A stretch of 54,401 bases of DNA from an uncultured Nitrososphaerota archaeon (GTDB taxonomy: Archaea > Asgardarchaeota > Njordarchaeia > Njordarchaeales > Njordarchaeaceae): positions 1 through 54,401 of the forward strand of contig CAZFGR010000013.1 of assembly GCA_964518475.1 (NCBI GenBank), written 5' to 3'. Below are positions 16,395-22,222 of this stretch, piece by piece (position 1 is the first letter of the stretch; each line of letters begins with the position of its first letter). Both the position numbers and the translations under genes were made by a program. The notes under the pieces are model-generated. The model was not told where the DNA came from and searched no databases. It was given only the letters and a program-made list of their open reading frames with translations.

Positions 16395-17504
16395 GTGATG
16401 CTTATGCAACAAAAACACCTAGTAGTGCTCGGTACCTCATTAGTAATTGCGGGAGAGACACTATCGTTCCTAGGTTTTCCAGTTTCTTTCAGCGTTTTCT
16501 TGGGCTATGAAGCTCCGCTGCTCCTAATTTTGCTGGGTCTTGTATCATTGATTGCTTATTTATGGGCTAGAAGAGTTTTCTTCGTAAAGGTCTTTTATCT
16601 CACATTACTCTTTTTGTCAATAATTTTCTTGGTTTTATTATTCAGTGTAGAGGCTACATTCACATACGTGCTTAATGCGTTAGCATACATGGGCTTATCT
16701 TGGATAGTTTATAGAGCTGTATCAGAAGAAGGAAGCCAAGTAGAAAATAGCAGCAGCAAGATCATGGCTATGGATAAGAGTAAATCTTCTGAGTACGTTG
16801 TAGAGCTTATTGATGTGAAGAAGGATTATGTGGTGGGACCAATAATTGTGCACGCGCTTCGAGGAATTAATATGAAGATTCGCAGAGGAGAGTTCGTGGC
16901 AATAATGGGTCCATCAGGTTCTGGAAAATCAACTTTACTGAATCTTATAGGTGCTTTGGATAGACCGACCTCTGGTAAAATAATCATTGACGGTGTGGAT
17001 ATCTCACAACTATCCGAGGATGAGTTAGCTGAGTTCAGAAATAAGAAGATAGGTTTTATTTTTCAACAGTTTAACCTAATAACTAGAACAACAGTCCTTA
17101 GAAATATAGAATTACCCGCTATCGTTGCTGGAGTTCCTCCAGAAGAGCGCCGAAGACGGGCCTTAGAACTCTTAAGGCTTGTTGGATTGACGAAGGAAGA
17201 GGCTATTCGTAGACCGGTTTATCTGAGTGGAGGGCAACAACAGAGAGTAGCTATTGTTAGAGCTCTAATGAATAATCCCTCCATAATCTTAGCAGATGAA
17301 CCTACTGGTAATCTCGATTCTAAAACTGGCGCTGAGATAGTTAAGCTTTTGAGGGAAATGAACGAAAAATTCGGGACAACAATAATTCTTGTTACTCATG
17401 ATAAGGAGGTAGCCCGAGCAGCTGATAGGATATTATATATTAGGGATGGAAAAATTGTAGGAGAGGAAATTTTGAGGAGGGAAAAATATGTCAACTCGAG
17501 TTAA
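16395..17504 (+). CDS. LolD/MacB-type ABC ATPase with N-terminal transmembrane extension
   Basis: About 110 hydrophobic N-terminal aa, then [28 protein letters not shown] and VTHD. Confidence 0.88.
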
Positions 17505-19074
17505 GGCATCGATAATTTTGTTCTGCCTATTATTTTATGTAACTTTTTATGCAGGAGTTTCTGGCTCTGGATACTCTATAGCTAGAGTCTCGGCGAGTAG
17601 TGTTGAGTTTCGAGTAGAAGATGTTTTTTGGGGTACTCTTGGTAATAGGATTACTCCCAGCGCAGGAATGATTAATGTTCCCTTAACAATAGTGGTTAGG
17701 AATTACTCTAACAATACTCTTAGAGGCGTAATAGGTACACTAAACCTAACCTATCCCTTCACTGATTACCAGACGGGATCAAATCAATCAAGAGCACGAG
17801 CAGAGCCTATTGAACAGGAGAGCGTGTTTAACCAAACTGGAGATATTCTACCCATGGGCTCGTTCGCGTTAACCTTCTACCTCAATATAGATGATAACGC
17901 TACTAAGGGAGAGTACTTATGTCTCCTTAAAATAGAGTATTCCATCAAGAATGGTTCCTTCTTCATAATTGGTCAGCCAAAGATTATCGAAGTATCAATA
18001 AGTCTTCCTAATCACCCCCCAACTGTGGAATCCTACTCACCTTCCCAGACTACTCTAACACTGAGTATTGGTAGCTCGGTTAATTTCACTGTCGAAGCAT
18101 CTGATCAGGATAATGATTCTCTGACGTATGAATGGGAATTGAATGGGGAAATCGTTGCTAAGGGCACAAATTATACCTTCGTAGCTACTGAGAACTATAC
18201 TGGATCTAATACTTTAGTATGCACTATTGATGATGGCGAAGCAACAACAAGTATAACATGGACCATCATTGTCCAGAGCATATCCTCCACCAAGCTCTGG
18301 GTATCTACCCAATACATCGTTGCTGGTATGGAGAATAAGTTAACTATTAAGATTAGGAATGACGAGTGGACGGGTACTGTGACCGCTACCTTTATGGCCA
18401 TGCAACCTCTTGTAATAATGGGTAATAATACATTCACTTTCGAAAATATCAATCCTGGAGATACAGTATCCTTCAATATTACTCTCTATGCACCAGATAC
18501 TGCTCTAGGAGCGACGACTCAATGCACGGTATCTATCACTTACAATAATGAGAATGGAGAATTATTCACGGAGAATCTGGCTATTGGTCTTATAATAAGG
18601 GGAATGATAACTATTATGATCTATGACATAGAGATAGATCCGCAACCAGTGAGCCCTGGAGAAAAAATAACAATCACGGGAGTCATTCTCAATCGCGGAA
18701 ATGTCAAAGCACAATTCGTTAATGTATCTATAGTACCAAGTTCCCTACTCTCATTATTCGCTGGCAGTTTTGAGTATATTGGCGATCTAGACCCCAACTC
18801 TCCTACACCATTTACGATATACGCGTACTTGAGAGAGGATGTTAAGAACGGTACATACTCCATTAGAATCACCGTGGATTACTTAGACGATATCTACGAG
18901 CCTCACACCTATGTAAAAGAGCTATCATTTACAGTTATTGAGAAATCTACGGAATCGTCTCAAACCGAGGGGCAGCAATCATTTACTATTGTCCAGTATG
19001 GCTGGGTTATTGTGTTATTGGTGGCTGTAACAGCAATGAGTATTCTCTACCTAAGAGGGAGAAAACATGTTTAA
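17488..19074 (+). CDS. COG1361-like S-layer/CARDB Ig-domain protein, C-terminal TM
   Basis: Signal peptide, repeated Ig-like units (N.G..A, YIGDL.P), PKD-like insert (ASDQDND.LTYEW), many NxS/T sequons; lies between ABC ATPase and permease. Confidence 0.75.
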   Translation: MSTRVKASIILFCLLFYVTFYAGVSGSGYSIARVSASSVEFRVEDVFWGTLGNRITPSAGMINVPLTIVVRNYSNNTLRGVIGTLNLTYPFTDYQTGSNQSRARAEPIEQESVFNQTGDILPMGSFALTFYLNIDDNATKGEYLCLLKIEYSIKNGSFFIIGQPKIIEVSISLPNHPPTVESYSPSQTTLTLSIGSSVNFTVEASDQDNDSLTYEWELNGEIVAKGTNYTFVATENYTGSNTLVCTIDDGEATTSITWTIIVQSISSTKLWVSTQYIVAGMENKLTIKIRNDEWTGTVTATFMAMQPLVIMGNNTFTFENINPGDTVSFNITLYAPDTALGATTQCTVSITYNNENGELFTENLAIGLIIRGMITIMIYDIEIDPQPVSPGEKITITGVILNRGNVKAQFVNVSIVPSSLLSLFAGSFEYIGDLDPNSPTPFTIYAYLREDVKNGTYSIRITVDYLDDIYEPHTYVKELSFTVIEKSTESSQTEGQQSFTIVQYGWVIVLLVAVTAMSILYLRGRKHV

Positions 19075-20251: not shown

Positions 20252-20338
20252 TGCGCTATTACTAAACACTATTAATTTTTATAGGATTTCCTTGGTTTAT
20301 ACTTTGGCACTATTGTAATGTATGTTGAGGTATACTTA

Positions 20339-22222
20339 TTGATACTCGGTTATATCCTTCTTAGTAGTGGCGGAGTACCCATTATTACGGATATTCTGAT
20401 ACCATTTGGTGCTAAAGAAAAAAGAGAATTCCTACCAATGATTCTAGGTAGCATCAGCGACTTGTTCAATACTATGCTTAAATCTCGAATCAAAGCTATA
20501 TCCCTCCAGAATTATCGCTTATACATGGATTACAGCGAGAAATACTCAGTAATAATAATTAGTGATACTATAGATCCTAGGCTAGAGACTATTAGTGGGA
20601 AAATAGTAAAAATGTTAGAGGAAGCGGATATTGATCCCTTAGAGCTTCAGATTCTACCAACAATGTTAGAGGATCTAAAAAATAAGGTAAGGGAGCTCCT
20701 CCTAGGCTCACCTCCTTCTCTACAATTCATCCGAGATATTTTAGGTGAAATAAGCGAGAAACCGATTAGTGAATCGGAGAAAACTCCGGCTAAAGAATTT
20801 CCAAATGAAGCAAAAATAACTGGGAAAGGTATTAAGTTAGTTACCCAATTAAGAAATGTCACTATCAGTGACTTATTGAAAATGTTTTATAAGGGAGACT
20901 TATCGAAGATACTTGAAAGTGCTCCATCTCTCTTCGGATCAAGTGATAATGATCTCGCAAGAATACTATACGCGAAAGCAGGTCTCTTTCTGCACATGTC
21001 TACTGCTCAGACGGATGAGTCATTGTTATACGCCATAAAAGGTGTTGTATCTAGAATCAAGGATTCTTTCGCTAAAAGGTACTTGGAGGCTGAAATTCTT
21101 TCATTTCATAGTGTTACGGGTTATCGAGAAATCTTCCAGATAATCTCCGATAACAGTTCAAGAATAAATAATATGCTTTCGAGGAATGATATTTTGGGAG
21201 ACGTCTATAAATTACTCCTTATTCCCGTCCCCATAATGTCGATACTGGAGAAACTCCAGAACCACTACGAAAAAACCTCTCCCTATCTCTACAGCATAAT
21301 ATATGAGGCAAAATCGTTACTAGTTCTGGATAAAGGAATGGAAGATCTCGAAACCCGAGCTTACTCAATATTGGGCACATCAAAAGAAAAATTAAATAAG
21401 TTCATGAAAATAAAAGCTCCATCAATAACTAGTTACTACCTTACTTTGCTGAGTAGTCTATTACACATCATTTTATTATCCAACATGACATATGAGGAAG
21501 GATCAAATATTATCCTAGAAACGCTAAACTTATTCGACAAAAGATGGAGAAAAACTATTGATAAGCTTAAAAATCAGCCGATTGCCACAAAGTTTGCTAA
21601 TATTTACCTAGCCTATGGAATACTCTACAGGTTTCTCATAGAAAGCAAAGATGAAAGAGCTAGAAAAAAACTTAATCGAGTCGAAAGTGTTTTACAAAGC
21701 AGTTTGACAGAACTTATGCAGTTCTATGCTCAAAAGAAAATTTTCAGAGTTTCCTATCTTTACCTATTAGCTGGTATATTGTCGGCACTCTCTAGAATAT
21801 TCATTGAAAAGAGCAAGGTCTCCAATCAGTTAGAATCCATAGTGGCGAGAGCTCTTGATTTTAATGCAGAACAATTATGGACATACGACAGAACACTTTA
21901 CCTCTCCTACTACATAAATTTGCTCGACACCATTGGTAACATAGTAATAATAAAAAACCGTGAAGAACTTAGTGAAAAACATAAGAATCTTCTCAATACG
22001 ATTGCTGATCGCTTAGCTATGATAAGTAACACTTATACGGGATCACTCTTGATCTCTTGCTTATCCGCATTAAGAGCAGTTAGATTCTATGGAGTGATAG
22101 GATCTGAAGCGGCTCTAGAAAAAAGTAAGAATCTCTGTCAATCCATAATGAAGAGGAGCTCACCATTCATCACAAGTATAATCACAAAACTACTTCAAAA
22201 AAGAAATGTAAAAAATGTTTAA
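20339..22222 (+). CDS. Putative longin-domain protein with C-terminal alpha-helical solenoid
   Basis: N-terminus follows a longin-like beta-beta-alpha-beta-beta-beta-alpha pattern; the rest is helical and Leu/Tyr-rich. Likely TTG start at 20339 after GAGGT (track start 20318). Confidence 0.6.
   Translation: MILGYILLSSGGVPIITDILIPFGAKEKREFLPMILGSISDLFNTMLKSRIKAISLQNYRLYMDYSEKYSVIIISDTIDPRLETISGKIVKMLEEADIDPLELQILPTMLEDLKNKVRELLLGSPPSLQFIRDILGEISEKPISESEKTPAKEFPNEAKITGKGIKLVTQLRNVTISDLLKMFYKGDLSKILESAPSLFGSSDNDLARILYAKAGLFLHMSTAQTDESLLYAIKGVVSRIKDSFAKRYLEAEILSFHSVTGYREIFQIISDNSSRINNMLSRNDILGDVYKLLLIPVPIMSILEKLQNHYEKTSPYLYSIIYEAKSLLVLDKGMEDLETRAYSILGTSKEKLNKFMKIKAPSITSYYLTLLSSLLHIILLSNMTYEEGSNIILETLNLFDKRWRKTIDKLKNQPIATKFANIYLAYGILYRFLIESKDERARKKLNRVESVLQSSLTELMQFYAQKKIFRVSYLYLLAGILSALSRIFIEKSKVSNQLESIVARALDFNAEQLWTYDRTLYLSYYINLLDTIGNIVIIKNREELSEKHKNLLNTIADRLAMISNTYTGSLLISCLSALRAVRFYGVIGSEAALEKSKNLCQSIMKRSSPFITSIITKLLQKRNVKNV

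Follow-up and report, generated by a model that had tools for sequence, protein, structure and literature searches.

What does a gene that joins a trafficking-type domain to a long helical repeat do in an archaeon? The question is raised by positions 20339-22222 of contig CAZFGR010000013.1 (assembly GCA_964518475.1), a 54,401-nt stretch of DNA, here called the window, from an uncultured archaeon of the Njordarchaeales (Njordarchaeum) that lives in hydrothermal sediment. A first-pass annotation, made from the DNA letters, had read the gene product as a longin-like domain fused to an alpha-solenoid, and had proposed a single-chain adaptor-like or small-GTPase-regulating scaffold from an Asgard-related host. 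This product, P0001, is described here as a soluble cytoplasmic two-module scaffold, in which a longin domain and a TPR-like superhelix of ~455 aa are joined by a flexible linker. The gene is real and conserved rather than a chance open reading frame (ORF), having collinear full-length homologues in 45 clusters and in related genomes. That P0001 is a longin–TPR platform linked to small-GTPase signalling is held with about even confidence.

A longin domain fused to a TPR-like superhelix

The AlphaFold2 model of P0001, built on a 45-sequence family alignment, scores well over the whole chain (predicted local distance difference test, pLDDT, 88.5; predicted template modelling score, pTM, 0.90) and consists of three parts: an N-terminal longin domain, a disordered charged linker and an all-helical superhelix formed by the last ~455 aa. 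Secondary structure assigned to the N-domain by DSSP (strands 9-16, 21-26, 60-63, 66-72 and 76-82; helices 32-53, 88-102, 107-112 and 114-129) follows the order beta-beta-alpha-beta-beta-beta-alpha-alpha, which is that of longin domains; roadblock/LC7 domains (MglB-like) have an N-terminal helix before beta1, whereas the P0001 chain opens directly with beta1. Superposition with Foldseek and VIA-align places the domain on AP sigma/mu, COPI zeta/delta, Fuzzy and VAMP7 (Z 11-13.2; root-mean-square deviation, rmsd, 1.9-3.2 Å; 113-120 of about 125 residues). In VIA-align, AP-1 sigma3 (9ddt_B) reaches Z 13.2 at rmsd 2.8 Å over 115 residues and AP-3 sigma (7p3x_S) Z 12.7 at rmsd 1.9 Å over 117 residues, followed by COPI zeta/delta (Z 11-12.7; 9qpq_L at 12.7), Fuzzy (9rs8_A, Z 11.2) and the VAMP7 longin (2vx8_A, Z 11.2); the AP-2 mu N-domain is also matched. 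Because the Z values of the adaptor longins and of Fuzzy/VAMP7 lie within about 2 units, they assign no longin subtype to P0001.

Sequence profiles point the same way. Against PDB sequences, the N-domain profile finds TRAPP Bet5 first (E 2.3e-5 and 5.5e-5), followed by a Robl_LC7 protein (0.0067), TRAPPC1 (0.009), dynein roadblock, delta-COP and AP-2 sigma (E 0.45). The profile of the longin–TPR family also matches short Asgard proteins of 126-150 aa (E 1e-15 to 1e-21), one of which scores over the Pfam gathering threshold for Fuz_longin_1 (30.3 bits, cut-off 26.1) and reaches the cut-off for Intu_longin_1. Fuz_longin_1 is weakly matched by 2 of the 45 longin–TPR family members themselves. Signals for Robl_LC7 are weak, comprising the N-domain profile match and a match of the paralogue P0058 (E 0.002), and Clat_adaptor_s (PF01217) gives no match to P0001 in Pfam at E up to 10. 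Topology, superposition and profile comparison agree in placing the N-domain in the longin fold superfamily.

Residues 183-633 form about 24 helices in the model, and the C-domain folded alone reaches pLDDT 93.6. A Foldseek-independent structural scan of this domain against 48,161 PDB chains, from which the 50 best matches were listed, returned MalT domain III (1hz4_A; Z 15.6, 285 residues aligned), phage Rap (8rte_B; Z 15.2, 317 aligned), APPBP2 (8jal_A; Z 14.6, 356 aligned) and APC6 (3hym_B; Z 12.3, with APC5/APC6 at Z 11-13.6), while separase, NprR, CBF3/Cep3, LGN-TPR, proteasome lid subunits and designed repeats also rank high; by the tool's own notes, Z 14-16 is a range common to any helical repeat. 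In the ESM Atlas, searched as a library of clusters with 50 or more members, the domain matches TPR_12-rich clusters and an ANAPC5 cluster (template modelling, TM, score 0.64), with TM scores by query of 0.58-0.65. TPR repeat profiles in Pfam give no match to P0001 at E up to 10. From the PDB-chain and Atlas matches, the C-domain is therefore a TPR/SUPR-like superhelix, recognized by structure and not by sequence motif. Searches of Pfam, NCBIfam and PDB sequences with the whole protein returned nothing significant; the weak matches to PIN_6, ATG17-like proteins and FAM91A1 (E 0.04) were treated as chance.

The stretch between the two modules (aa 141-182) is 31% charged, and pLDDT is low across residues 153-176. 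A whole-chain pTM of 0.90 despite this 24-residue disordered segment implies that the longin domain sits at a fixed place relative to the solenoid, and the model suggests that the domain is probably packed against the TPR-like superhelix. P0001 has no convincing transmembrane segment; its top Kyte-Doolittle windows fall in the first two beta-strands and in buried helices of the solenoid, all of them confidently modelled as globular. A transmembrane segment at the hydrophobic N-terminus (Kyte-Doolittle 2.0) was considered and rejected, since the residues in question make up beta1 and beta2 of the longin domain, which is modelled with confidence. No full-length structural look-alike, eukaryotic or other, is found among the Atlas clusters (TM by query at most 0.28). 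The three-part reading of the first-pass annotation, with longin topology in the first ~125 aa, a charged linker and amphipathic C-terminal helices free of transmembrane segments, is borne out by these results, and the N- and C-parts are predicted to adopt a longin fold and a helical repeat, respectively.

A lineage-restricted family with several paralogues per genome

The longin–TPR family is small and lineage-restricted, with up to six paralogues per genome, and the longin domain without the solenoid occurs widely across Asgard archaea. A word-indexed search recovered ten homologues of P0001 at about 37% identity, all from metagenome-assembled genomes of Njordarchaeales, and HMMER, run exhaustively over 1.84 billion representatives, gave only 45 clusters (50% identity) at E below 1e-3, most of them 600-635 aa long and collinear over the whole length. 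Named members come from Candidatus Njordarchaeales, Candidatus Njordarchaeia, Njordarchaeum guaymaensis and 'Korarchaeota' (an older label), and one close member belongs to the GTDB genus of the window, in keeping with the Asgard host expected at the outset. The DNA of P0001 is present in sediment and hydrothermal-vent metagenomes.

A profile search of 400 genomes of the phylum found full-length members only in the genus and order of the window and in two further families (f17 and f30), together with one partial case (G043); 2-3 full-length copies per genome were found, the three best candidates per genome being scored. N-domain-only matches, in short or otherwise fused proteins, occur in 326 of these 400 genomes. 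The fusions seen elsewhere in the phylum join the N-domain to TackOD1, to CARF-Csm6 HEPN and to GTPase domains (Atlas clusters with Arf/Ras/Roc). Two examples from other genomes of the phylum are a 566-aa protein with a CARF-Csm6 HEPN module (L041:140-1840, − strand) and a 377-aa protein with TackOD1 and zinc ribbons (L038:223-1356, + strand).

The genome search for paralogues and small GTPases that the first-pass annotation had proposed was productive. The window's genome encodes six full-length longin–TPR paralogues (Table 1) and several longin-only relatives, alongside one fusion of a longin to an Arf-like GTPase (P0089) and 8 or more Rab-like GTPases; its small GTPases number roughly 9. 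In a maximum-likelihood tree, the family separates into many deep paralogue clades, and P0001 groups only with an orthologue of the same genus, which retains synteny with fumarate hydratase.

Paralogues beside Rab-like GTPase genes

Two of the six paralogues connect the family to small GTPases. P0056 (667 aa) ends 21 bp before the co-oriented gene of a Rab-like GTPase, P0057 (Ras PF00071, E 5e-51). An orthologue of P0056 was located in four further genomes of the genus, and an orthologous GTPase gene follows it directly in 4/4 cases (E 1e-58 to 1e-63); the arrangement is thus found in 5/5 genomes examined in all; in two of these loci (L047 and L049), a longin-only gene of 138-153 aa comes next after the GTPase. 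P0090 (726 aa), a distant member, lies 1178 bp from another Rab-like GTPase gene (L063:68-736) and is convergent with it. Placement within 1.2 kb of a Rab-like GTPase gene therefore applies to 2/6 paralogues, the frequency among ORFs at least 300 aa long being 1.8% (binomial P about 0.004). Complex prediction for P0056 and P0057 gave a score of 0.07 and a mark of 0.32, and is counted neither for nor against binding.

Some further features of these GTPases were observed. The G3 motif of P0057 and of its L046 orthologue is DTAGE, not DTAGQ, and so lacks the catalytic Gln, which is retained in the three remaining orthologues. P0089 joins a longin-like N-domain to an Arf-like GTPase, which matches Pfam Arf at E 2.6e-16 and has the G3 sequence TVAGQ. 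The gene 44 nt upstream of it encodes P0088, a 642-aa all-helical protein without family assignment; the P0088–P0089 pair is at L070:188-3000 (G000 contig C1:180187-183002). The idea that P0088 is a detached copy of the P0001 solenoid was dropped, the hhalign probability being 0.3%.

Proposed role and alternatives

For Asgard archaea, longin/roadblock dimers have been described as GTPase platforms, and longin–GTPase fusions have been reported (PMC10933270; bioRxiv 10.1101/2020.10.19.343400). Together with these published platforms, the P0056/P0057 operon and the proximity of P0090 to a GTPase gene make small-GTPase-linked scaffolding the most likely role of the longin–TPR family, a role that is inferred for P0001 across deep paralogy. 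The longin domain of P0001 would then be a docking platform for a Rab-like (Ras-superfamily) GTPase or for a longin/roadblock partner, and could work alone or as a dimer, like the longin/roadblock domains in TRAPP, Mon1-Ccz1, Ragulator and MglB. Other proteins would be recruited by the TPR superhelix, and each paralogue may link its own set of partners to one of the roughly 9 small GTPases. GTPase binding by P0001, and its action as guanine nucleotide exchange factor, GTPase-activating protein or effector, are plausible by analogy with the gene context of the paralogues and with longin roles elsewhere.

Several points weigh against extending this role to P0001. There is no small GTPase on its 54-kb contig, and the genes beside its orthologues and near paralogues in other genomes are unrelated and not conserved. 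The GTPase-linked paralogues belong to the most divergent subfamily of the longin–TPR tree, which makes the transfer of their function to P0001 a long step, and the solenoid scores are of the generic kind noted above. The longin-type domain of the family is also fused to non-GTPase outputs (TackOD1 and CARF-Csm6 HEPN), so a GTPase partner is not required in every case. In SNAREs and in adaptor sigma/mu subunits, longin domains likewise have roles that are independent of GTPases. The earlier proposal of a small-GTPase-regulating scaffold is left plausible but indirect, supported at the paralogues that adjoin Rab-like GTPases and not at P0001 itself.

The alternative that survives best, although doubtful, is a signalling or assembly scaffold that operates without a GTPase, for example an assembly factor or a participant in two-component or KaiC-type signalling, with the longin domain as a general docking or sensing module and the TPR superhelix binding peptides or partners. 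The fusions of the N-domain family to TackOD1 and CARF-Csm6 HEPN in other genomes of the phylum are consistent with it, as is the lack of a GTPase near P0001. The solenoid is matched best by signalling TPRs that bind peptides or ligands (Rap, NprR and MalT domain III), the matched TPR_12 arrays carry TIR, CHAT, CadC and kinase domains, and Liu et al. report many Asgard longin fusions to two-component signalling domains (bioRxiv 10.1101/2020.10.19.343400). Against such a scaffold stand the paralogue clade in a conserved operon with a Rab-like GTPase and the second paralogue that adjoins another; the closest PDB sequence relatives of the longin domain are TRAPP subunits, which are GTPase-exchange platforms.

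The adaptor-like reading of the first-pass annotation fares poorly. It would make P0001 a single-chain proto-adaptor or coat subunit, in which a sigma/zeta-like longin on a trunk-like solenoid forms half of an AP or COPI core that is recruited to membranes for cargo sorting. Its support comes from the longin domain, whose top structural matches are AP sigma/mu and COPI zeta/delta (Z 12-13) and which also matches a Clat_adaptor_s cluster of the Atlas at TM by row 0.65 (123 residues superposed, rmsd 2.4), and from the high whole-chain pTM, which suggests that the longin packs on the solenoid. Yet the adaptor Z values of 11-13 are not separated from the 11.2 of Fuzzy and VAMP7, and sequence comparison places the domain closer to TRAPP Bet5 and to longins of the Fuz/Mon1 type than to Clat_adaptor_s, for which Pfam gives no match and AP-2 sigma scores E 0.45. 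The solenoid is of TPR/SUPR type, and no adaptin trunk, COPI beta/gamma or clathrin chain appears among the 50 best of 48,161 chains, which weakens this reading and falls short of formally excluding it. P0001 shares no full architecture with an Atlas cluster, and no membrane-binding, cargo-binding or appendage modules are seen in it. A proto-adaptor is improbable. Least probable of all is a proteostasis or complex-assembly scaffold resembling APC/C TPR subunits, APPBP2-type receptors or PCI-type lid subunits, with a longin that only dimerises, for which the solenoid matches to APPBP2 (Z 14.6), APC5/APC6 (Z 11-13.6), separase, proteasome lid and the Atlas ANAPC5 cluster (TM 0.64) speak, but these scores are typical of any TPR-like superhelix, there are no ubiquitin-system neighbours, and Pfam gives no sequence signal for such families.

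The GTPase-linked scaffold can also be given a bolder form, in which these longin–solenoid proteins would be the prokaryotic equivalent, in one chain, of an adaptor or TRAPP-like hemicomplex. Each paralogue, a longin mounted on a helical-repeat scaffold, would have its own Rab-like GTPase to bring it to a site on a membrane or the cytoskeleton. This is speculative and unlikely; if true, an Asgard lineage would have solved GTPase-directed targeting independently or even in an ancestral-type way.

Gene boundaries and genomic surroundings

The longin–TPR gene is a single + strand ORF at 20318-22222, of 634 aa counted from ATG 20318, the numbering used throughout. Position 20339 is an in-frame TTG, from which the ORF is 627 aa long, the stop being included in 20339-22222. 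The MILGYILL start of nearly all homologues aligns with this TTG, and residues 1-7 of the ATG form have pLDDT below 50 in the model. Given the homologue starts, the spacing of an upstream GAGGT and the unconfident residues 1-7, 20339-22222 (627 aa) was therefore taken as the gene. The TATA-like element upstream, read as an archaeal TATA box, may be a promoter belonging to P0001 itself. The GSPPS motif behind the longin domain (PPxI in the family consensus) is the most conserved short motif of the family.

Table 1. Positions of the P0001 gene, its signals and domains in the window, and of longin–TPR paralogues in the same genome
Feature	Location	Strand	Remarks
TATA-like TTTTTATA	20276..20283	+	Possible promoter, read from sequence; in the 67-bp gap behind the FtsX-type permease gene
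Shine-Dalgarno-like GAGGT	20327..20331	+	Putative, read from sequence; 7-nt spacer to TTG 20339
P0001 coding sequence	20339..22222	+	627 aa from TTG; alternative ATG 20318 gives 634 aa
Longin domain, aa 8-132	20339..20713	+	beta1-beta2-alpha1-beta3-beta4-beta5-alpha2-alpha3; model topology and superpositions
Post-longin helix region, aa 133-152	20714..20773	+	Contains GSPPS motif
Disordered charged linker, aa 153-176	20774..20845	+	pLDDT below 50
TPR/SUPR-like alpha-solenoid, aa 178-633	20849..22216	+	About 24 helices; domain model, pLDDT 93.6
P0001	contig C13		Full-length longin–TPR paralogue
P0012	contig C24		Full-length longin–TPR paralogue
P0058	contig C5		Full-length longin–TPR paralogue
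P0013	contig C15		Full-length longin–TPR paralogue
P0056	contig C14		Full-length longin–TPR paralogue
P0056–P0057 operon	L044:1969-4521 (G000 contig C14:9968-12520)	co-oriented	Orthologous loci L046, L047, L048, L049
P0090	L071:2157-4334 (G000 contig C12:23653-25833)	−	Full-length, very divergent sixth longin–solenoid paralogue; distant, hhalign probability 91.6%

Upstream of P0001 lies a MacB/FtsX-type ABC transporter set and downstream a convergent class-I fumarate hydratase gene, with MFS, GDPD and HD-domain genes farther away; these neighbours are uninformative for function. The only recurrent neighbours of its nearer relatives are a rubrerythrin gene (4 loci) and a gene for a multi-pass membrane protein (4 loci), which are mutually unrelated and absent at P0001. 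The rubrerythrin-like gene (182-189 aa) stands directly 3' of one longin–TPR clade in four genomes (L018-L021). The membrane protein, of ~320 aa, is encoded 3' of another longin–TPR clade in family f17 (L023 and L025-L027), with a tandem duplicate in two loci. Within the window, a gene for a 528-aa secreted or extracellular protein (17488-19074, + strand) is located between the ABC ATPase and the MacB/FtsX permease. With 32.5 bits against a Pfam cut-off of 27.4 (E 1.3e-7), its product qualifies as a match to PTHB1_GAE, the gamma-adaptin-ear-like domain of BBS9, and it also matches the Ig-like domains Big_9, PKD and CARDB; the PTHB1_GAE match probably reflects just an Ig-like sandwich.

Comparison with known systems

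The N-domain of P0001 shares its fold and its strand and helix order with TRAPP Bet5/TRAPPC1 and with the first longins of Mon1, Fuzzy and HPS1 (PF19036), to which it is also connected by a profile-level signal (Bet5 E 2.3e-5) and by a transitive link through the short Asgard protein that passes the PF19036 cut-off. The architectures differ. TRAPP subunits are small and stand alone, whereas the P0001 longin is fused to a 455-aa TPR-like superhelix, and the tri-longin RabGEF subunits (Mon1, Ccz1, Fuzzy and HPS1, as in Fuzzy/Inturned and HPS1/HPS4) contain three longins, in contrast to the one longin and all-helical remainder of P0001. The Rab-binding site of those RabGEFs is formed by two paralogous subunits as a heterodimer; P0001 and its paralogue P0012 are encoded in the same genome. 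The AP sigma/mu N-domains and COPI zeta/delta give the best superpositions of the N-domain, but without Clat_adaptor_s sequence membership. In AP and COPI adaptors, moreover, the solenoid is a separate HEAT/ARM-like large subunit, whereas P0001 carries a TPR-like repeat in the same chain and has neither mu-homology nor appendage domains. P0001 is thus neither a Clat_adaptor_s member nor a tri-longin RabGEF.

With TPR/SUPR signalling scaffolds, including MalT domain III, the Rap/NprR quorum-sensing receptors, TPR_12 arrays and the APC/C TPR subunits, the C-domain has an overall superhelical helical-repeat architecture in common, although the likeness is in the generic range and the effector domains of those proteins (HTH, phosphatase, TIR and CHAT) are not attached in P0001. 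That a TPR-type solenoid is common in prokaryotic signalling proteins tempers the reading of P0001 as a proto-adaptor.

The Asgard longin/roadblock superfamily provides the wider setting. It comprises 130 asCOGs with many lineage-specific fusions, reported partners being GTPases, TRAPPC3, NPRL2-C, DENN and two-component domains (PMC10933270; bioRxiv 10.1101/2020.10.19.343400). The N-domain of P0001 is homologous to the short longins of this superfamily, and the longin–TPR family fits lineage-restricted domain shuffling. Asgard genomes encode dozens of small GTPases and longin/roadblock proteins, and pairing the regulators with their GTPases is hard because the genes are rarely in operons (PMC10933270). 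As a defined, clade-restricted architecture with several paralogues per genome, the longin–TPR family offers a tractable entry for this pairing, and expressible pairs of the P0056/P0057 type could show whether archaeal longins already act as GTPase platforms and what the fused scaffold adds. A longin fused to a TPR-like solenoid is absent from the fusions described in PMC10933270 and bioRxiv 10.1101/2020.10.19.343400, and no description of a longin–TPR fusion family was found in the literature. The longin and TPR superhelix of P0001 form a new domain combination within the known Asgard longin fusions, rather than a vesicle-coat adaptor.

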